Below are positions 1,955-50,216 of a stretch of DNA of 64,000 bases, one piece after another. The number at the start of each line of letters is the position of its first letter. Position 1 is the first letter of the stretch. A model generated the notes under the pieces. It searched no databases and had not been told where the DNA came from. It saw nothing but the letters and a program-made list of their open reading frames with translations. Location of the stretch: IMG/VR virus record IMGVR_UViG_2778261510_000005; one strand, given 5' to 3'. The position numbers and the translations under genes were made by a program. Origin of the DNA: a virus (taxonomy: Duplodnaviria > Heunggongvirae > Uroviricota > Caudoviricetes).

Positions 1955-4209
1955 ATCGCCATAACGTCATGAGCAACACCACGAGTGTCTCCCTTACAAG
2001 ACACAGAACGTCTGGCAAAGAGAGGTTCCACTCTGAAGCCACTGTCCTGATAAAGTTCTCTGATGTTTGGCGCGCCACTGTTTGTAATGAGAACTTTTGC
2101 ACCTCGACGATGAGCATCCGTCAACAGAGACACCAGGCGTTTTTGCTCTTCAAACTTAAAGTCATGACCGGAATAGTTCGTGAATCCCTCTGTATTTGGA
2201 AGCGGTTCATACGGCGGATCGCAAAAGATGACATCTCCTTCTCCGGCAGCTTCAATCACCGCTGCAAAATCACCGCATACAAACTCAGACCGCCCTTCCG
2301 CACCGAGGAAGGCTTCCATCTCCTGTAATGGGAAATACGGAGTTTTATACTTCCCATAACCGACATTGAACTCACCGGCCTGGTTGTAACGCGTCAATCC
2401 GTTAAAACAATGTCGGTTCAGGAACAAAAACGCCGCTGCGCGATGTAAATCATCATAGACTTGTTTGTTAAACGCATTCCGTACTGCCAGGTATCCTTCC
2501 TGTGTGTTGTAGTCCTGGAAAAAACGATGTGCCAGAGTGATAAGTGAATGCGCCTCGCGTTGCAGAGTCTTGTAAAAGTTAATCAGGTCAGCATTCACAT
2601 CATTTAGCAGATTTTCCTGGTATCCGGCATTCATGAAGACAGCTCCGCCACCAACGAAAGGTTCAATCAGGCGCTTCCCTTCTGGCAAATAGCGAAAGAT
2701 TTGTTCCAGAACACCAAATTTTCCACCAGCCCATTTGAATATGGACCGTTCGAATTCTGCCGCTGGTTTAACTTTTCGCTCTTTTGTTTCACTTCCTTCT
2801 TTCTGCCGACATACGGCCTTAGTAATCCGATCGCCAATCCAGCGCATTACTGGTATTGCCATACTATTGCCGATCGCTTTGTAACGCGGTCCGTCAGCTG
2901 CAAGCATCGCGGCCTCTTCTTCGCTTAAATCTGGATAGTGATTGCGAAGATATGCCAGTTCATCTGAATTAACTTTTTTACGCTTTTCCGTCGGGATCAA
3001 CGTATGCCCATCAGGAAAACCTTGCAGCCTTTCACATTCGACAGGGGTAAGACGGCGGACAGCTACTTCTGCGTTTCTTACTTCATAGCAAACAGCTGTT
3101 GGATTTTTAGCCATTAGAGATGGTGAAGTATTCTTAGTTGCAGCATGTTGTGTACCGCTCATACGCTCAGGAAAAGCCAATGTAACAAGATGCTCATGGC
3201 TTTCTTGCTCACGTGCCCGCAATGTACCATGCCCTTCTGACCAAAAACCTGCTCCTGTGCTGCTAAAAACGGCAAGGTCAGTGGCATCTTTAAAATCTCT
3301 TGCCTTTACTGTCGATGCGGTTTCATCGTCAATATATTCCCCAAATGCCGCCATCCTGAAAGCGTTTACGGCTTTCGTCGATTTCATACCGGGTGGCATG
3401 TCAGCGTGTAGGCATGGATTTAGGCTTTCGCCACTGATTGCAGCGCCATTTGCAATAATGGCGGAAGCGATTTCCTTCTTTTTTCGGCTCGGCGCAATAT
3501 TCCGGCGCACGCCTTCGAACTCAAAAAGTACCGTTGCGGGATCGAAGTCTGTTCGAGCACTTGCGACAACAAACACGCGTCGGCGTCGTTGTGCCACTCC
3601 GAAGTATTGGGCATCAAGGATTCTCCAGGCCACCTTTCGCTGCGGTCCATAAATACAACCACACTGCGGCCACTTTGGAGCATGGCAACCGGTTTTGCCA
3701 TCCCACCGCCAGAACGCGTTACTTTTTCCTGATTCAGGTCGATCACCTGGTTCAAATGGCGCATCTTCTCCAGCCAATCCGGCAAGGAAACATCCGAAGG
3801 CGTTATCTGCCGATGACAAGACTCCTGGGACATTTTCCCAGACGATAACGGCTGGTTTGAGAAATGACTCAGCCCGTTTGTCGTCAATTGCATTTGCAAG
3901 CTCCACATACTTTAAAGTTAGCGCGCCACGCTCATCATCAAGCCCACCACCTAATCCTGCGATACTGAATGCCTGACAAGGTGTTCCCCCGACGAGCACA
4001 TCAGGGGATTCGATTTCCCCAGCCAGGACTTTTTGGGCAAGTTTTGTCATGTCGCCAAGGTTGGCGACATGGGGCCAGCGGTGCGCAAGAACGGCAGATG
4101 GAAAAGGCTCGATTTCAGCAAACCACGCCGGACGCATACCCAACGGTTCCCAGGCAATACTCGCGGCTTCAATTCCACTGCAAACAGATCCATAGCACAG
4201 CTCTTTCAC
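1945..4209 (-). CDS. dmt: bifunctional DNA methyltransferase: C5-cytosine MTase N-terminal half, Dam-like N6-adenine MTase C-terminal half
   Basis: 754 aa; C5 motifs [12 protein letters not shown] and VIVWENVPG; Dam-type motifs FKWAGGK and FCDPPYEPL; GTG start overlapping upstream stop (GTGA). Confidence 0.85.
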
Positions 4210-5111
4210 TGCTTAGCCTCTCCACCAAGGGCATTTACCAGAGCATCAACCAGGCACGAAATTTCACTGGTCAACAGGAAGAAATCTGCGTCCAGTCGCT
4301 GCGCAACATCTTCATTATCAATATCAGAGTTCTGCTCAAGCAATTCATCCGCAAATTTGACGCTGGTAAGGCTGAAGTTATGGTCCAGTGTAAATTTAAT
4401 GCGGTTCTGCCAGTCGAGTGCCAACTTAGTGACGAGCTTGCCAGCTTCCAGGTGTGTGGAAATTTCATCGCTTCCCAAATCCTGCTTTTTCACTCGGGCA
4501 ATACCGCCATCCTCAAGCACTGCCTTAAGTTCTGCCGCATCCCCCATTTGAAATCCTTGTGGAGCACTACCATCACGTACCCAGTCGGTCAGCGTTAATT
4601 CAATGGGATTTTCAACACTCAGGGGAACAACAGGAAGAGAACCCAGAGACTTACGCATAAGCGCGAGCATATCCTCTGCCTGCCGCGCGCTGGCATTGAT
4701 ATAGATACGTTTAGTTGAACCGTCGTAGATCGCCTGGATAACAGAAAACTTTGAAAAAGCCCGTGGCAGAAGAGAATGCAGAACTTCGTCTTTCAGGGAG
4801 TCCTTCTCTGTTTTCTTCAGTTTACGCGCTTGTTCTTGCTCAAGTTTTTCAATTTTTTCTTGAATAGCTCGCTGGATAACCGGCGGGGGAAGAATTTTTG
4901 TTTCGCGCTTTGCTTCAACAAGGATAAAACCATTTCCATGCATAGCGATAACTTCGGAATTATCACCAAATGGAGATACAAAACCGAACTTGGCCATATC
5001 CTGACTACCGCATGGCGTGAAAAGGATCATTTTCTTTTTATCTTCTAAGTCGGTCAGATCCGCCTCACGAGAAAGTTTATAAATAGTAATGTTTTTCCAG
5101 TGCTTAAACAT
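4206..5111 (-). CDS. hrdC: RdgC-like recombination-associated protein
   Basis: N-terminus [16 protein letters not shown]...[14 protein letters not shown] resembles E. coli RdgC (MLWFKNLMVYRL...); start trimmed to ATG at 5111 with AAGGG RBS. Confidence 0.8.
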
Positions 5112-42379: not shown

Positions 42380-45367
42380 ATGAGCTTAAGCGATCGGGTG
42401 GTGATGGCCACCAGCATAGAAACGCTGATCGAGCTGCTAAAAAACCTGCCCGATTACGGGCGGGTTTCGTATGTGGTGACAGCGAAGGGAGACGAGGTAA
42501 AAACAGCGTTTGATATCGTCGATGCCTCAGCTCTTTTGGTATCCAATACTCTGGACGGGAAAATTAATCCGGACTATCCCCAGGAACTTCAGCCGCGCGA
42601 CCGGACCCGCGCATCCAGTATTCTTCAGGTTAACCAGATATCCAAGGATTTGCGGCCTGCTCAGCTTACCGACTCCGGTTTATCCAGCCATGGAGCGCCG
42701 ATAATTGGTGAGGACAATGCCGTTGAGTCAGGTAATGGACGAACCATGGGGATCATTAAAGCCTATCAGGACGGCAATGCGGATCGGTATCGGGAGTACC
42801 TGATTGAACATGCGAGCGAATTCGGCATACGTCCTGAAAAGGTTGAATCAATGACGGCTCCGGTACTGGTGCGCCGCCGGTTAACTAAGGTTGACCGCGT
42901 TCAGTTTGCCAAAGACTCAAATATTTCTGATCTTCAGGAAATGGCAGCCAGTGAAAAGGCTTTTGTTGATGCCGACAGCATAACACCGGCGATGATGGCG
43001 CTGTTTAATCCGTCAGAAAGCGGAGATCTGCTTAGCCGCAGTAATGACGCGTTTATTCGCGGATTCATGACGCAAGTTGGTGCCACACAGGCTGCTGGCC
43101 TTGTAACGGAAGATGGGCGACCAACGCGGCAACTTGTTGACCGTATACAAAACGCGATCTTTGCCAAGGCATATAAGGATGCGCGCCTGGTAAGGATGGT
43201 TGCAGAAGAACCTGATCCGGATATGCGTAATGTTCTGACGGCACTTAATGCGGCGGCCAATGATTTTGTACAGATGCAGGCTTTATCAGGAGAAGCGCAC
43301 AAGCAGGCTGTGACAACTATCGTTGATGGTATTGAAACAGCGGATAGCCTCGATAAAAAGGCGCTGGCGGCATTGAAAGATGCGGTAGACCTGGTAAGGC
43401 AATCGAAGGAGTCAGGCCAACATATTACCGATGTTATTGCTCAGGGGGATATGTTCAGCGAAACGGCCCCGGAAGTGAAAGCTCTCGCGTTGTTCATCGT
43501 CGCGAATAACCGTAGCGCGAAGCGTATGGCCACCGCCTTTAAATTGATGGCTCAACGTATCAATGATGAGTTACAGCACCAGGGCCAGGCGCTGGGGGAT
43601 ATGTTTGGCGGTGGTGATGTGTCGTTACAGGATATCCTTCGCCAGGTGTCTCAGGAACTGGAAAACGAAGGCATGCAAGGGATATCCGGCGGTCTTTTCG
43701 AGTCCGTTTCCGGCGGTAGTTACAACGGTGTTGCTCCATATACCAGCTTGCTATTACATCGGGTATCCGGCATCAAAGACATTATTCATCTGATCAGGCT
43801 GCTTTCCCGTACAGATCCCCAGGATGAACAGCTTGTACAAGTGCTTGCGCATTTTGTTCGAATGCCTGTTGCCGACGTGAATAAATGGTGCCGATTATTC
43901 GGTATCAGCAATTCGTTACTTCGCGGATTGTTAAATCACGCATCCTCCCTTGGGCGCGACGGCTTTGATGAGATAGCGCAGGCGATAAAAAACGGAGATA
44001 TGCCACCAGCTATTGACTGGTTTTCCATTCGCCCAACCAGGGTGAAAGCATTCCTTAGCGCGGCGCATTCGGCATCACCATTGGCAGAAATGATTCAGAG
44101 GTTGTCGCTCATATTCACAGACCATACCGCGTTGGGTGATCTGACTCTGGACGAGATGAAAGAAGCCTCCATTCAGTGGGCCGATCAACAAAATGAGGTT
44201 AACTCAGACTTCTTGCCAGCATTCAGGAAGGCCGTTAGTAAAGCGGATGATGCCCGTGGAATTCTGAAGGCATTTAAGGCATTGCAAAGTCGGGTTAATA
44301 AACATGTCGGTGATATCGATGGGGTAACGGCGGAAGGCAGGGATATCCTTAAAGAGCACGGCATAACGCCAGAGTTTATTGATGAGATCAGGACGGATAT
44401 GCAGCGTGATGTCGTATCGTCCCTGCAAATTGTAGCCAGAGCGTTGGCGGATGCTAATCCGAAGAGTGCGGCCATTGTTAACCGGGTTATTGGTGATATT
44501 GAAGCATCGGAGGGCATGGGGGCGCTGAAACTCTTCCTTTCGCGAGCGTTTAATCCTAACGGCAATATTCTCCCTGGCATTATTGGTGAGGCTAAAAAGT
44601 ATGTCAGTGAAGAAGAACTTGAGCATCTTGACCAACTACTTAAGCGATTCTCATATAACCCGCAGACACGCTGGCAAATGAATCAGCGAAGTATGGGTTC
44701 GGTCCACGAGAAAGTGTTATCTGCCATGAACAGTGCGATCGCAAACTCATCCGTATCTGAAGAAAAAGCTCTTGAGTGGGCCGACTCTTTTATCACGGAA
44801 GAAGTGGAAGAAGCCCGCGCTGGACAGAATGGTGGGATAGACCTGCGCAAGGAACTTGCTGATATTTATCGCCTGACCGGCGGTAAAATTTCGACCTTAT
44901 CAAAGGTGGTTCACCACAAGGGAAGGGCATATGCAAATCTTAATGGTGTTGTTGCTGTCAATTTGAACGATGAAAATGCAAGTGCACTGTGGCACGAGCT
45001 GGGTCATCATCTTGAGTACAGTAACCCTGGTTTGTTAGAGAAAGCCCGGTCATTCCTGAAGGCCAATGTTGAAGGGGATAAGCCATCTTTCGTTAATATC
45101 GGTGGGCGTGGCAAGCCTGAATGGTGCTTCAGATCTCGATTGAGTAATATTTATATGGCGAAGGTATACCCGCCAGCCTCAGTAAGTAACACTGGGAAAA
45201 TTCGGCAGAAATCCCCGACTATTTCCAAAACGTCAGCAACGGAAGTATTCTCTATGGCTCTTCAGTTGTATCATGACAAAGAGGCCGCTGCCGCATCACT
45301 GATGAATGGTGACGGATTGCTGGAACTGTTATTAGGTGTGGCAAAGGAGCTAAATAATGCAGATTAA
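42380..45367 (+). CDS. Dar operon large protein (DdrB-like position)
   Basis: 995-aa ORF in antirestriction operon. Confidence 0.5.
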   Translation: MSLSDRVVMATSIETLIELLKNLPDYGRVSYVVTAKGDEVKTAFDIVDASALLVSNTLDGKINPDYPQELQPRDRTRASSILQVNQISKDLRPAQLTDSGLSSHGAPIIGEDNAVESGNGRTMGIIKAYQDGNADRYREYLIEHASEFGIRPEKVESMTAPVLVRRRLTKVDRVQFAKDSNISDLQEMAASEKAFVDADSITPAMMALFNPSESGDLLSRSNDAFIRGFMTQVGATQAAGLVTEDGRPTRQLVDRIQNAIFAKAYKDARLVRMVAEEPDPDMRNVLTALNAAANDFVQMQALSGEAHKQAVTTIVDGIETADSLDKKALAALKDAVDLVRQSKESGQHITDVIAQGDMFSETAPEVKALALFIVANNRSAKRMATAFKLMAQRINDELQHQGQALGDMFGGGDVSLQDILRQVSQELENEGMQGISGGLFESVSGGSYNGVAPYTSLLLHRVSGIKDIIHLIRLLSRTDPQDEQLVQVLAHFVRMPVADVNKWCRLFGISNSLLRGLLNHASSLGRDGFDEIAQAIKNGDMPPAIDWFSIRPTRVKAFLSAAHSASPLAEMIQRLSLIFTDHTALGDLTLDEMKEASIQWADQQNEVNSDFLPAFRKAVSKADDARGILKAFKALQSRVNKHVGDIDGVTAEGRDILKEHGITPEFIDEIRTDMQRDVVSSLQIVARALADANPKSAAIVNRVIGDIEASEGMGALKLFLSRAFNPNGNILPGIIGEAKKYVSEEELEHLDQLLKRFSYNPQTRWQMNQRSMGSVHEKVLSAMNSAIANSSVSEEKALEWADSFITEEVEEARAGQNGGIDLRKELADIYRLTGGKISTLSKVVHHKGRAYANLNGVVAVNLNDENASALWHELGHHLEYSNPGLLEKARSFLKANVEGDKPSFVNIGGRGKPEWCFRSRLSNIYMAKVYPPASVSNTGKIRQKSPTISKTSATEVFSMALQLYHDKEAAAASLMNGDGLLELLLGVAKELNNAD

Positions 45368-45674
45368 AATCGCAGCGCCATTAGGCGGAGATGCCATTAT
45401 CGAATTTGATGATAATGAAGAAGTTTCCGGGCGTTTAAGCATTATCTCCGGTGACATTACCGAGGACATGATCGCTGAAGCCATAGCTGGGGCAAATCCC
45501 AATAGCTATATGGGATTCGTTAACACCCTTGATGCTCCCGCAAGTGATGTTCTCCGAACGCTGCATCTTTACGCTGGCTGGTTTGTTGATTGGCCAGCAG
45601 TAGAGGGTGGCGATGAGGACGACGACGATGACGACGATGATTTTGGGGATCATGTAGACCAGATCGTATATTGA
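45357..45674 (+). CDS. small protein with poly-Asp tail
   Basis: 105 aa ending GGDEDDDDDDDDFGDHVDQIVY; followed by terminator. Confidence 0.45.
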   Translation: MQIKIAAPLGGDAIIEFDDNEEVSGRLSIISGDITEDMIAEAIAGANPNSYMGFVNTLDAPASDVLRTLHLYAGWFVDWPAVEGGDEDDDDDDDDFGDHVDQIVY

Positions 45675-45680
45675 AGAAAT

Positions 45681-45705
45681 CCCGCCAATCGGCGGGATTT
45701 TTTTT
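45681..45705. terminator. rho-independent terminator (between convergent genes)
   Basis: CCCGCC-AATC-GGCGGG followed by ATTTTTTTT. Confidence 0.6.
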
Positions 45706-46492
45706 AATCGCTTTCCACTTCTTCCGTGGTGTTTTCTTGCAGTTCTGTTAATGCAGCACGACATAGGTTCCGGGCATTGGCTATAGCCACACTTTTGACT
45801 TCATCCGTCATCGTGCAGGTAATGTACTGATCGAGTTCTTCAGCGTGGATGATGCTTTTGCCAATCAGAAACTGTATTTGCCAGAGCAGATCGGCATCCA
45901 TAATCAGAATTTCTGCCGGGCCTTCAGGGCCAGCCGGGAAGGAAACATAAGACTGTTTGCCCAGGCCGATAACTCGACAACTTGCTTCAAGAATTGCGCG
46001 CTTGAGGTCTGACTTTGTAACTGAAACAGGTTGATTTTCACCTGCGATTACGCCGTTGACATGGATGTGGAAAGGCATGTAGCTTGAAATTCGCTCTACT
46101 TTCCATACGCCAGCAAGCGATCCTTCATGCAGCACAATGGGGGTAACCGCGAGTTTCATCTCACCATATAACTGCTGGCAGATGGCTGGATTGCTGAATA
46201 CATCCAAAGGTTCACACTCAAACAGCGGCGCAATCTGCATGAGGTCCATCATGGTCATACTAGGGGTACGAGCAGTAATGAATCTGCGCATGCCAGTATC
46301 CATTGTGCGCCAGATAGCTACACCATGCTTTTTGCTCACTTCTTCAGTAAAGCCAAGGTGGCACATGATGGTTTTTTCGATAGCCAGATCAGAGATAGAA
46401 ACCTTTTCGCCAGGTACACCATCATTATTGATGGTCACTTCGACACTCTGGCCATTACGCAGGCGGTATTGAATTGCTTTAGTATTTTCCAC
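45704..46492 (-). CDS. hypothetical protein
   Basis: 262-aa ORF, convergent with Dar operon. Confidence 0.45.
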   Translation of the reverse strand: MENTKAIQYRLRNGQSVEVTINNDGVPGEKVSISDLAIEKTIMCHLGFTEEVSKKHGVAIWRTMDTGMRRFITARTPSMTMMDLMQIAPLFECEPLDVFSNPAICQQLYGEMKLAVTPIVLHEGSLAGVWKVERISSYMPFHIHVNGVIAGENQPVSVTKSDLKRAILEASCRVIGLGKQSYVSFPAGPEGPAEILIMDADLLWQIQFLIGKSIIHAEELDQYITCTMTDEVKSVAIANARNLCRAALTELQENTTEEVESD

Positions 46493-46498
46493 GTTAAA

Positions 46499-47176
46499 TC
46501 ACTCCACTACAAACCAGTCACATGCCAGTAAGTCGCATACAGAAGGCACCCACGGAACAACTACACCTTGTGCATTTTTTAAGGCGAAATAAGCACCATA
46601 CGGAACGAGGTCGCCGGGGAAATATCCCTTAATGGCTTCCATTCGTGCCGGGTACTGTCCTTCAGGAACCAGCCAGCAGAATTGGTTTTCGCCGTTCCAC
46701 CCGCGTCGAGCAACTTTCTTGCCATCCTTCAGCCACATCAGCGCGTCAGAAAAGTCGGCTGCTTCAAGGTCGATTTCTTCTTGTGTGGTAATGATGCCAC
46801 TGGCAGCAATAGTTACGTCCCTGGCTGTAATGAATGTCACCCCATTGTGACCTTCAATACTGAGCGATACCCCATTTTCGAAGAAGTCGTTAGTCCGACT
46901 AAAGCCTTCTTCAAATGTTTTTTCTGGTGAATAGGACAGAGATCCGTCCTCATAAGCGACCAGATATCCGCCAATTTCTGGTCGGTGTTTTTGCAAAAAC
47001 ATTTTATCAACATGGACTTTTACCCCTTCTGGCTCAACGACTTCGATGTTGCAAAAAAGGACCACATCCATTAGGGCGATAATTTCGATATCTTTGATTT
47101 TTGAGGCGCGAACTGTTTTATGGCTTTTGTATTTTGGAAGTGCCGTCAAAAGCTCTTTCGTTGTCATGTTATTCAT
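46499..47176 (-). CDS. two-domain protein with C-terminal DUF2829-like segment
   Basis: ATG 47176 with GAGGAAA RBS; C-terminal ALMWLKDGKKVARRGWNGENQFCWLVPEG...VPWVPSVCDLLACDWFVVE. Confidence 0.5.
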   Translation of the reverse strand: MNNMTTKELLTALPKYKSHKTVRASKIKDIEIIALMDVVLFCNIEVVEPEGVKVHVDKMFLQKHRPEIGGYLVAYEDGSLSYSPEKTFEEGFSRTNDFFENGVSLSIEGHNGVTFITARDVTIAASGIITTQEEIDLEAADFSDALMWLKDGKKVARRGWNGENQFCWLVPEGQYPARMEAIKGYFPGDLVPYGAYFALKNAQGVVVPWVPSVCDLLACDWFVVE

Positions 47177-47373
47177 AGTCTTTCCTCTGCTTAAAACCTG
47201 ATGTATTGCGCCTTCAGGTGGGTCAGGAATGTTTTCCCACCAGCGAAAGCAATATCTCGGGGTGTTCTTTTCGTGAAAAGCGCGTGCCATTGCCAACTTT
47301 GGCGTTTGTTTGCGAGTTCGTGCTTTTGTCGGCGTCTGGACCACCGCTTTTCTTTCAGTCGTTTTTTACACAT

Positions 47374-47862
47374 TCAAAACGGAATATCGTCGTCAAAGTC
47401 CATTTGAGGTTCGTTATTGGCGTTGCTCTGAGGTTTACCGCCACCACTGTATTGCTGGTGGTTTTGAGGTTGGTTTGATTGCCCCCAGCCATTTGAGGAC
47501 TGTGAATCGTCACGGCGAGCGCCGATCATTTGCATGGTGCCGCCCTGGCTGACGATAATTTCCGTCGTGTAACGTTCTACACCGGCGTCATCTGTCCACT
47601 TACGGGTTTTAAGTTTCCCTTCGATGTAGACCTGAGAACCTTTTCGTAAATACTCACTCGCAATTTCAGCAAGTTTTCCGAACAAAACGACTTTATGCCA
47701 TTCTGTTTGCTCTTTCTGTTGGCCCGTTTGCTTGTCGCGCCATGATTCATTCGTTGCGATGCTGAGTCTTCCGACCGCGCCGCCATTTGGTATATACCTG
47801 ATCTCCGGGTCTTGCCCCAGGGTACCAATCAGGATGACTTTGTTTACACCGCGTTGTGCCAC
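47374..47862 (-). CDS. ssb: single-stranded DNA-binding protein
   Basis: 162 aa, GTG start; OB-fold core closely similar to E. coli SSB; Gly/Gln-rich linker; acidic C-terminal tip DFDDDIPF. Confidence 0.9.
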
Positions 47863-47881
47863 TTATCTTACCTAATAAAAT

Positions 47882-47898
47882 AAATTAATTAGAGCAAT
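47882..47898. promoter_or_regulatory. C1-repressor-type operator between divergent ssb and lyz
   Basis: AAATTAATTAGAGCAAT, 16/17 to consensus. Confidence 0.6.
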
Positions 47899-48031
47899 AA
47901 TGTATATCTTTGAAACGTAGCTAACAAGTGATTTGCATTATCCTGTGCCTTCTAAAGGGATCGAGTCAGTCGGTATTGGCTGTGAATGAGTGTTTGTCCT
48001 GGAGCGTAAAAAATTCGCTTATGAGGTCTTT

Positions 48032-48589
48032 ATGAAGGGAAAAACAGCCGCAGGAGGCGGTGCAATTTGCGCTATCGCGGTGATGATTACCATCGTGATG
48101 GGTAATGGCAATGTGCGAACCAACCAGGCAGGGCTTGAGCTGATTGGTAACGCTGAAGGTTGCCGACGTGATCCATACATGTGCCCGGCGGGGGTATGGA
48201 CTGACGGGATCGGTAATGCACACGGGGTAACGCCGGGTGTGCGAAAAACCGACCAGCAAATCGCCGCTGATTGGGAAAAGAATATCCTGATCGCTGAACG
48301 CTGTATTAATCAGCACTTCCGGGGCAAAGACATGCCCGATAATGCCTTCAGTGCAATGACAAGCGCGGCATTCAATATGGGATGTAATAGCTTACGGACC
48401 TACTACAGCAAAGCGCGAGGCATGCGAGTAGAAACGTCCATCCACAAGTGGGCGCAGAAAGAGGAATGGGTGAATATGTGTAACCATCTCCCTGATTTCG
48501 TGAACAGTAACGGCGTGCCCCTGCGAGGTTTAAAGATTCGCCGTGAAAAAGAACGCCAGCTTTGCCTGACGGGGCTGATCAATGAATAA
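48032..48589 (+). CDS. lyz: SAR-endolysin (T4-lysozyme fold with N-terminal signal-anchor-release domain)
   Basis: 185 aa from ATG 48032; Gly/Ala-rich weakly hydrophobic N-terminus AAGGGAICAIAVMITIVMG; catalytic E...D...T in NAEGCRRDPYMCPAGVWT. Confidence 0.85.
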   Translation: MKGKTAAGGGAICAIAVMITIVMGNGNVRTNQAGLELIGNAEGCRRDPYMCPAGVWTDGIGNAHGVTPGVRKTDQQIAADWEKNILIAERCINQHFRGKDMPDNAFSAMTSAAFNMGCNSLRTYYSKARGMRVETSIHKWAQKEEWVNMCNHLPDFVNSNGVPLRGLKIRREKERQLCLTGLINE

Positions 48590-48875: not shown

Positions 48876-50216
48876 GGTGGTTATCCGGTGCGCCGTAAAA
48901 TCCCGTCCTTCAGGGAGGGGATATAAGGCGTGGTTTTCCACCTAACTGTTTTTGTTTAAAATAGTGGGATGAAGCGACTACAAGCATTTAAATTCCAGTT
49001 AAGACCCGGTGGTCAACAGGAGCGTCAAATGAGGCTCTTTGCCGGAGCTTGTCGTTTCGTTTTCAATCGTGCACTGGCACTTCAGAATGAGAATTATGAG
49101 GCCGGGAATAAATACATCCCTTACACGAAAATGGCTTCCTGGTTGGTTGAGTGGAAAAAAGACACTGAAACCGAATGGCTTAAAGATTCTCCCTCACAGC
49201 CATTGCAGCAGTCACTGAAAGACCTTGAGCGGGCCTACAAAAATTTCTTCCAGAAGCGGGCGGCTTTTCCCCGATTCAAAAAGCGGGGACAGAATGATGC
49301 ATTCCGCTACCCGCAGGGTGTTAAGCTCGACCAGGAAAACAGCCGTATTTTTCTGCCGAAACTTGGCTGGATGCGCTACCGTAACAGCCGGCAGGTCACG
49401 GGGATTGTGAAAAATGTCACTGTCAGCCAGTCCTGCGGTAAATGGTACATCAGTATTCAGACAGAAAGTGAAGTATCCACTCCGGCTCACCCTTCAGCAT
49501 CAATGGTCGGATTGGATGCTGGCGTGGCCAGGCTCGCCACGCTGTCAGATGGCACAGTCTTTGAGCCTGTAAACAGTTTCCAGAAAAACCAGAAAAAGCT
49601 GGCGAGACTTCAGCGCCAGTTAAGCCGCAAGGTCAGATTCAGCAACAACTGGCAGAAGCAGAAACGCAAAATACAGCAACTGCACTCCCGTATCGCAAAT
49701 ATCCGCAGAGACTACCTTCATAAAGTCACAACGATCATCAGCAAAAACCACGCAATGATTGTCATTGAGGATTTGAAGGTTAAACACATGTCAAAGTCAG
49801 CGGCGGGTACGATAAGTCAGCCGGGTCGCAATGTCCGGGCAAAATCAGGTTTAAACCGTTCGATACTGGATCAGGGCTGGTATGAAATGCGCCGCCAGCT
49901 TGCGTACAAGCAGCTCTGGCGTGGCGGTCAGGTGCTTGCTGTTCCGCCAGCGTATACAAGCCAGCGTTGCGCGTACTGTGGTCATACAGCGAAAGAGAAC
50001 CGCCTGTCACAAAGTAAATTCAGATGCCAGGTATGTGGATATACAGCGAACGCCGATGTAAATGGCGCTCGCAACATTTTAGCGGCGGGGCACGCCGTTC
50101 TTGCCTGTGGAGAGATGGTGCAGTCAGGCCGCCCGTTGAAGCAGGAACCCACCGAAATGATTCAGGCGACAGCCTGAACGTAGCAGGAATCCACGCCCGT
50201 CAGGGCGTGGAGGGTG
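48876..50216 (+). mobile_element. IS200/IS605-family tnpB-only element inserted between lysis genes and prohead protease gene (ends approximate)
   Basis: intact tnpB; right-end hairpin CCACGCCC-GTCA-GGGCGTGG at 50191-50210 about 6 bp from the convergent protease stop; no tnpA ORF; left end not resolved. Confidence 0.5.
48969..50177 (+). CDS. tnpB: TnpB RNA-guided endonuclease (OrfB_IS605)
   Basis: 402 aa; RuvC-I GLDAGV, RuvC-II IVIEDL, zinc ribbon CAYCGHT...CQVCGYT, Ruv[14 protein letters not shown]. Confidence 0.85.

Follow-up and report, generated by a model that had tools for sequence, protein, structure and literature searches.

A probable Tad2-family signal sponge with an additional N-terminal domain beside ssb in a P1-like phage-plasmid

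Does the gene that follows ssb in a phage-like stretch of DNA encode a sponge for bacterial immune signals, and what might the remainder of its product be for? The DNA in question is a 64,000-nucleotide stretch (hereafter the window) of the IMG/VR virus record IMGVR_UViG_2778261510_000005 (Duplodnaviria; Heunggongvirae; Uroviricota; Caudoviricetes), and the gene occupies positions 46499-47176. An original prediction, made from the letters alone, had likened the C-terminal 85 residues of the product to DUF2829, the family of the Thoeris anti-defence sponge Tad2, and had pointed to ssb and the antirestriction (Dar) cluster as neighbours. The open reading frame (ORF) was found as described there, on the minus strand, with a product of 225 aa and with the quoted C-terminal sequence present. 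This account of the protein was right about a Tad2-like C-terminal domain; it missed a second, N-terminal domain as well as the public annotation that already existed. The protein in fact has two domains joined by a linker (N-terminal domain, residues 10-97; linker, 98-136; Tad2-like domain, 137-225), which are laid out on the DNA as follows.

46499..47176, minus strand: Tad2-like coding sequence (CDS), complete, 225 aa plus stop; ATG at 47176, stop at 46499-46501
46886..47149, minus strand: N-terminal domain, residues 10-97; Dec-type oligonucleotide/oligosaccharide-binding (OB)-fold barrel with the motif LPKYKSHK...RPEIGGYLVAYEDGSLSYSPEKTFEEGF
46769..46885, minus strand: linker, residues 98-136; beta-rich, predicted local distance difference test score (pLDDT) <50, replaced or missing in homologues
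46502..46768, minus strand: Tad2-like (DUF2829) domain, residues 137-225; Pfam match to residues 141-224 at 46505-46756
46589..46666, minus strand: insertion between beta-strands of the Tad2-like domain, residues 171-196; corresponds to the second-pocket region of HgmTad2 and MoTad2

Judging from sequence and structural modelling, this gene probably encodes a Tad2-family counter-defence sponge and would be an accessory gene of a P1-like phage-plasmid.

The Tad2-like domain and its predicted function

By sequence and by predicted fold, the C-terminal half is a bona fide Tad2-family domain. The Pfam family PF11195 (Tad2-like, formerly DUF2829) matched residues 141-224 over profile positions 2-73 of 73 (E=3.6e-23), with a score of 82.3 bits against a gathering cut-off of 25, which is far beyond chance, so that the resemblance first proposed was borne out by the profile search. 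The length of 85 residues given for the domain held roughly, the span being ~84-89 residues (137/141-225) and the quoted stretch starting at A145. Among Tad2 sponges with solved structures, the closest relative was ModTad2 (E=7e-21, ~46% identity in phmmer), followed by HgmTad2/AcrIIA7 (6e-12), SPO1 Tad2 (6e-10) and SptTad2 (2e-9). Searching the PDB by sequence gave E-values of ~7e-20 for ModTad2, 2e-10 for HgmTad2/AcrIIA7 and 4e-9 for SPO1 Tad2. The AlphaFold2 model, which was built on 34 homologues and is a monomer prediction only, reached a pLDDT of ~85-92 in this domain and contained a helical stretch (H142-150) followed by strands. The model superposed on Tad2 structures: Foldseek aligned it with 24 Tad2 chains (E=6e-10 to 1e-5; target-normalised template modelling (TM) scores of 0.63-0.88), the best match being the complex of ModTad2 with histidine-ADP-ribose (His-ADPR; 9EIB, E=6e-10), with TM scores of 0.79-0.88 to ModTad2.

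The residues that line the ligand pocket were conserved as well. W25/N26/W73/S76/D79 of SPO1 Tad2 align to W160/N161/W209/S212/D215 of the window protein, and W21/N22/G23/W87/S90/D93 of HgmTad2 align to W160/N161/G162/W209/S212/D215. Across the 34 homologues no variation was seen at W160, W209, S212 or D215, and very little at G162. Other sponge families gave no Pfam match in the window protein at E<=1 (Sequestin, PF21825; Acb4, PF13876; Acb2/Tad1), and a hidden Markov model (HMM) scan of all six frames detected no second copy of either the N-terminal or the Tad2 domain in the window. PADLOC and NCBIfam scans of the 225-aa protein also returned no match, which is uninformative because the PADLOC models cover defence and not anti-defence; a match to PHROG 872 spans the full 225-aa protein.

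The Tad2 identification is not new. In plasmid pMB2910_2 the same protein, without any difference in sequence, has been called as WP_001376910.1. It appears in RefSeq under the label "DUF2829 domain-containing protein", and a close homologue is entered in UniRef as "Thoeris anti-defense Tad2 family protein". These annotations precede the present analysis, as does a 2025 preprint in which a screen of phage-plasmids for anti-defence systems placed Tad2 in 56% of the elements of the P1 group and in 93% of those of the D6 group.

Comparison with the characterised proteins narrows down what the domain may do. Tad2 proteins are tetrameric sponges for signals made by TIR proteins, with pockets at the protomer interfaces. 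SPO1 Tad2 (gp34.65; 8SME/8SMF/8SMG), the founding member, binds 3' cyclic ADP-ribose (3'cADPR); the window protein shares with it the Pfam family, the fold and the W25/N26/W73/S76/D79 set at ~35% identity, whereas SPO1 Tad2 is a single-domain protein with a shorter insertion, in which stacking of F44 occludes the second pocket. ModTad2, or MoTad2, from a Myroides odoratus prophage (8V3E apo; 9EIB with His-ADPR) is closer: it belongs to the same insertion length class, has a similar pattern there (VP.G.Y....IK..F.G..V.Y..Y) and carries both the GWNG and the W-x-P-S-V-x-D pocket motifs. It differs in being a stand-alone protein of 89 aa where the window protein has a 136-residue N-terminal extension, and in that its ligands (His-ADPR, plus cyclic UMP and cyclic CMP (cUMP/cCMP) in a second pocket at the A-C interface) were proven by experiment, while the window protein is known from sequence and model. 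HgmTad2/AcrIIA7 (8KBI-8KBM) has the domain and the pocket motif for glycocyclic ADP-ribose (gcADPR) in common with it, but binds the cyclic dinucleotides cGG and cGAMP through a 41-residue insertion of its own, via R31, S47, F70 and N85.

Taken with sequence and model, these likenesses make it very probable that the domain is a signal sponge, most likely one that blunts Thoeris-type immunity by taking up TIR-derived ADP-ribose signals. Upon infection or prophage derepression, early transcription of the ssb operon would let the protein accumulate, and its Tad2 domains would assemble into the tetramer usual for the family. Pockets between the protomers would then bind and sequester the signal of the TIR sensor without degrading it, the Thoeris effector would stay unactivated, and the phage could replicate. 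[quoted passage not shown] By analogy, the most likely ligand is His-ADPR (type II Thoeris), our best single guess because ModTad2 is the closest relative and the insertion class matches; 3'cADPR (type I) comes next.

The insertion between the beta-strands is the part of the domain in which relatives differ most. Among P1-like alleles it falls into three discrete length classes of 24, 33 and 41 aa, of which the window protein has the 33-residue one, and it is the least conserved segment, with a mean pairwise identity of 0.44 where the domain core has 0.80-0.88. Diversification of a ligand site would fit this pattern, although shuffling of modules alone could yield the same. By analogy with MoTad2 and HgmTad2, cyclic mono- or dinucleotides may be bound in a second pocket made by the insertion. 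Cyclic-dinucleotide (cGG/cGAMP) binding of the HgmTad2 type is not predicted from the sequence, because R31 is replaced by V170 and N85 is absent, falling in a gap; the window protein thus lies outside the HgmTad2-type subclass, which is marked by a 35-41-residue insertion and R31/S47/F70/N85. As a separate observation, P1-like alleles that are otherwise alike show the insertion recombining on its own, apart from variation in the N-domain and linker.

These substitutions also bear on whether the Tad2 fold might serve here outside defence, for example in buffering c-di-GMP with effects on lysogen physiology, or whether the gene is simply a decaying passenger. HgmTad2 binds c-di-GMP with picomolar affinity, and the gene must be dispensable, since P1 does without it. 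However, the c-di-GMP-binding residues of HgmTad2 are not conserved in the window protein, the reading frame is intact, the pocket residues do not vary among the 34 homologues and the gene is kept in hundreds of plasmids, so that we regard a non-defence role or decay as quite unlikely. The similarity in sequence and fold to AcrIIA7/HgmTad2 (8kbi, 9kzr) would in addition fit an anti-CRISPR of the AcrIIA7 type, DUF2829 having first been reported as an inhibitor of type II-A Cas9. Yet the anti-Cas9 activity of HgmTad2/AcrIIA7 was not reproducible in vitro or in vivo, and the hosts E. coli and Salmonella are not known to carry type II-A CRISPR-Cas, which counts against such an activity as well; we consider it extremely improbable.

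Several points weigh against the sponge reading itself or limit how far it can be taken. The second shell of the pocket differs from that of SPO1 Tad2 at four positions (T65N, D67Q, H71V and T78C), the adenine-contacting T78/T92 being C214 in the window protein and G in most close homologues, and the loss of the HgmTad2 dinucleotide-binding residues described above belongs here too. Ligand specificity of Tad2 proteins is not readable from sequence: ModTad2 does not work against type I Thoeris even though its core residues are identical, and different Tad2 homologues act against cyclic oligonucleotide-based antiphage signalling (CBASS), Pycsar and Thoeris types I, II and IV. Finally, the bulky N-terminal domain may be a bar to tetramerisation, and co-transcription with ssb is something we infer from the arrangement of the genes.

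The N-terminal domain

In the AlphaFold2 model, residues 10-97 form a small beta-barrel with a pLDDT of 85-97. No Pfam or NCBIfam model covers these residues; PHROG 11049 does. The only significant PDB match was Dec of phage L (6e3c; Foldseek E=2.9e-4, prob 1.0), and profile comparison with Dec agreed with this (hmmsearch E=4.5e-5; hhalign 95.4%, E=1.8e-8, 85 columns), the two domains having the motif (K/R)PE(V/I)GGYL...G.L.Y....FE..(Y/F) in common. The domain also aligned with RyR Tad, gp68 of Pectobacterium phage CB1 (10.64898/2026.06.04.730250), over gp68 residues 2-69 (hhalign 90.2%, E=1.5e-6), with L.xY.sHK.V.A and GGYLV.Y...Y.S.SP..F..G as common motifs. Like the window protein, RyR Tad consists of this homologous N-domain followed by a signal-sponge domain; unlike it, the sponge has an all-helical RyR Repeat12-like fold, the N-domain is shorter (~70 aa) and the protein is a dimer. 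The RyR Tad N-domain alone was inactive against type I Thoeris, and in the crystal it formed a domain-swapped dimer via strand beta1 (10.64898/2026.06.04.730250). Because this homologue is inactive alone and dimeric, the N-domain of the window protein is, by analogy, most economically seen as an oligomerisation or scaffold module, with an independent anti-defence activity as a possibility.

The N-domain family turned out to be large. A word-indexed search reached close relatives only and an exhaustive profile search was needed, which gave 4,930 cluster representatives at E<=1e-3 and 2,535 at E<=1e-10 (clusters formed at 50% identity). Domain architectures were counted in the 139 best-scoring matches under 500 aa. 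The domain stood alone (<=125 aa) in 51 of these and lay at the N-terminus in 126; it occurred alongside Sequestin (PF21825) in 17/139, Tad2 in 12/139, Acb4 (PF13876) in 3/139, and an Acb2/Tad1 hairpin and an RyR domain in 1/139 each. Triple arrays were also present among the relatives (N-domain-Tad2-Sequestin and N-domain-Sequestin-Acb4). Joining of small sponge domains in one polypeptide by a flexible linker is known from the multi-sponge fusions (Acb4-Tad2 of Pasteurella phage Pm86, Tad2-Sequestin, and Acb4-Sequestin in Ab09 gp59), which the window protein resembles in this respect. Sequestin and Acb4 are experimentally proven sponges, fusions of one sponge to another are functional, and Tad2 fused to other sponge domains, as in Acb4-Tad2, works experimentally. 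In those fusions, however, the partner is a proven sponge, whereas in the window protein it is an uncharacterised OB domain.

Such numbers could also be read to mean that the N-domain is an anti-defence module in its own right, either a sponge for another signal or a masker of a phage trigger, and that the protein neutralises two pathways. The sheer size of the family, the 51 stand-alone copies and the preference for the N-terminus would agree with this, as would the fusions with Sequestin, Tad2, Acb4, Acb2/Tad1 and RyR sponges, the same guilt-by-fusion logic having led to the discovery of Sequestin; Acb4-Tad2 and Acb4-Sequestin provide the precedent for two targets. Since the RyR Tad N-domain alone is inactive against type I Thoeris and supplies the dimer interface in the crystal, we hold this dual function to be possible but on the unlikely side. 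A broader proposal, which we think doubtful, is that the N-domain is an unrecognised and very widespread phage counter-defence module (signal sponge or trigger masker), often found as a separate protein of ~90 aa, and no passive scaffold, in which case the P1-like gene would combine with its conserved partners IsaA and a 364-aa protein, both described below, into a mobile anti-signalling cassette with several targets.

The relation to Dec raises the question of whether the protein might be associated with the virion, its Dec-like domain binding the capsid and the Tad2 domain being displayed on the particle or delivered with it. The OB fold by which Dec binds capsids, on the heads of phage L/P22, is homologous to residues 10-97, some homologues are automatically annotated as 'capsid decoration protein', one homologue (P0023) bears a tail-fibre repeat of Dec's kind, and the adjacent Dar cluster invites an analogy with the packaged Dar antirestriction proteins of P1. 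The window protein nevertheless lacks the trimerising fibre-repeat C-terminus of Dec: residues 94-131 of Dec (6E3C) match tail-fibre PHROGs, and a Pfam scan found no PF03406-type repeat in the window protein. Dec is encoded in a head gene cluster next to the terminase genes, while the window gene is placed in an early, C1-controlled ssb operon and not in a late structural one. In many unrelated phages the domain precedes cytoplasmic sponges, in RyR Tad it forms a dimer, and a sponge has to be present within the cell in stoichiometric excess. A virion-associated role is therefore very unlikely in our judgement, and the oligomerisation or scaffold reading is the one we retain.

While the Tad2 call itself is of modest interest, the N-domain is the lead worth following, and the more useful one: it is abundant, occurs with five sponge families and is related to a capsid-decoration fold. 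It is a candidate either for a new counter-defence function or for a general oligomerisation handle of sponges. We also considered whether it could be Lockin and rejected this from the description of that protein, since Lockin is reported to be hexameric and absent from INPHARED phages, whereas the N-domain occurs in INPHARED phages and has Dec as its sole significant fold match in the PDB. Two minor observations concern other matches. In P0023 (306 aa), a Phage_fiber_2 (PF03406) repeat stands ahead of the OB and Tad2 domains, which is either a true architecture or a gene-fusion artefact. Five proteins of 2,000-4,500 aa (P0126, P0127, P0129, P0150 and P0214) reach high scores with the N-domain profile through 8-28 short, repeated partial matches (profile positions ~35-87), probably an unrelated repeat that shares a GGYL-like motif.

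Replicon, operon and start site

Identity of the region to Salmonella phage SJ46 is 97.6%, the aligned parts match phage P1 at 96-97%, and a copy of the gene with 100% nucleotide identity lies on pMB2910_2, a 96-kb IncY plasmid of an E. coli isolate from human blood. On the strength of these identities, we assign the window to a P1-like (IncY) phage-plasmid. The gene order is ddrB(+), hxr-like(+), isaA(-), Tad2-like gene(-), ssb(-) and lyz(+), and the neighbours that the original prediction had named, ssb and the Dar cluster, are both in place. The features on which the following paragraphs draw are these.

42380-45367, plus strand: ddrB, a Dar-cluster gene (PF18763 ddrB-ParB); position and length the same as for P1 ddrB
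45704..46492, minus strand: isaA homologue, 262 aa, PHROG 2326, no Pfam family; starts 6 nt after the stop of the Tad2-like gene
47177..47373, minus strand: leader of 197 nt between ssb and the Tad2-like gene; in P1 this sequence stands ahead of isaA
47180..47187, minus strand: Shine-Dalgarno-like GAGGAAAG, ending 4 nt ahead of the ATG at 47176
47374..47862, minus strand: ssb, first gene of the operon (NCBIfam PRK09010, 267 bits)
47882..47898, minus strand: C1 repressor operator (P1 Op21/Ossb, ATTGCTCTAATTAATTT), inside the promoter region upstream of ssb

P1 has no Tad2-like gene, and its corresponding interval holds IS1 and isaB instead. Collinearity between P1 and the window extends to the start codon and resumes at codon five or six of isaA. 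Because it breaks only between these two points, the Tad2-like gene is, from the alignment, a cassette that sits precisely at the junction of the ssb-isaA leader with isaA, and with IS1 and isaB occupying the interval in P1 we take it to be a variable accessory slot. The locus thereby flags a variable 'anti-signalling' slot adjoining ssb. GC content offers no clear signature of foreign origin for the gene: it is only mildly lowered, to ~0.40, over the 5' half, while the 3' half has 0.50-0.52.

As to expression, the promoter/operator region upstream of ssb differs from that of P1 at 2 of 146 aligned bases. A terminator scan detected no terminator-like site on the minus strand, that of the gene. 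Given this conserved region, the absence of such a site and the shared orientation downstream of ssb, the Tad2-like gene would belong to the early, C1-controlled ssb operon and would be co-transcribed with ssb. A sigma-70 promoter scan of 45300-48100 found nothing. No site for the -22 box of the P1 late promoter LPlyz was present upstream of the Tad2-like gene, and window-wide the matches to this box were near chance (29 as compared with 20.5 expected).

The start of translation needed some attention, since the leader is an uninterrupted in-frame extension of 56 codons from a GTG at 47344, from which the SJ46 record annotates a product of 281 aa. In P1, nearly the same 56 codons form the annotated N-terminus of IsaA, an unrelated protein. 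We rejected the 281-aa reading as the likely product because these codons precede IsaA there; further points against it are the strong ribosome binding site at the ATG at 47176, the call of 225 aa by the Prokaryotic Genome Annotation Pipeline (PGAP) and the fact that homologues in other contexts begin at the equivalent methionine. For the reasons of shared codons, homologue starts and PGAP call, 47177-47373 was treated as a likely shared leader, which, being an open frame, could still be translated. Database records annotate it variously as the N-terminus of two unrelated proteins; a leader, a small basic peptide and a regulatory element are among the things that it could be.

Two further features of the neighbourhood may be mentioned. 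The hxr-like ORF (45357-45674, plus strand; 105 aa, no Pfam match), annotated in P1 and SJ46 as a 'putative repressor', shares its first 11 nt with the end of ddrB and ends in a run of nine aspartates within GGDEDDDDDDDDDFGD. Downstream of lyz and a small ORF of 84 aa, an IS605-family TnpB of 402 aa is encoded at 48969-50177 (plus strand), with HTH_OrfB_IS605, OrfB_IS605 and Cas12f1-like TNB domains. At this site the gene table of pMB2910_2 has 'lysozyme' followed directly by 'head processing protein', without a gene between them, which suggests a recent insertion of this insertion sequence (IS) in the element of the window.

Distribution and a second locus

A megablast search of PLSDB found the Tad2-like gene in 229 plasmids, as compared with 484 that have a P1-like ddrB; about half of the P1-like plasmids thus carry it. 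The 229 are nearly all non-mobilisable and come from E. coli, Salmonella and Shigella, with listed records of ~88-99 kb. P1-like phage-plasmids are common in clinical isolates of these hosts and are workhorses of transduction, and an early Tad2-type sponge in about half of them would help to explain their host range in the face of TIR/Thoeris or other nucleotide-signalling defences.

Related alleles are also found at a second locus, downstream of cre, and Tad2-Sequestin genes occur in the same region. At both the post-ssb and the post-cre locus an IsaA-like protein follows the Tad2 gene (48% identity between loci), and usually a 364-aa protein follows as well (53% identity between loci), which is absent from the window. 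Conservation of this neighbourhood at two different loci suggests that the N-domain-Tad2 protein, the IsaA-like protein and the 364-aa protein form a mobile functional module. In other P1/D6-like phage-plasmids the corresponding regions are 3209-5084 (L010) and 3170-5021 (L011).

At the cre locus, a dUTPase gene stands immediately upstream of the Tad2 gene or runs on in frame into the Tad2 domain. An example of the fusion is P0056, a dUTPase-Tad2 protein of 241 aa encoded at 4001-4726 in a P1/D6-like element (L004), and in L011 (1992-3163) a separate dUTPase of 164 aa lies immediately upstream of the N-domain-Tad2 gene. Together, these arrangements look as though domain shuffling at gene boundaries had been caught in progress.

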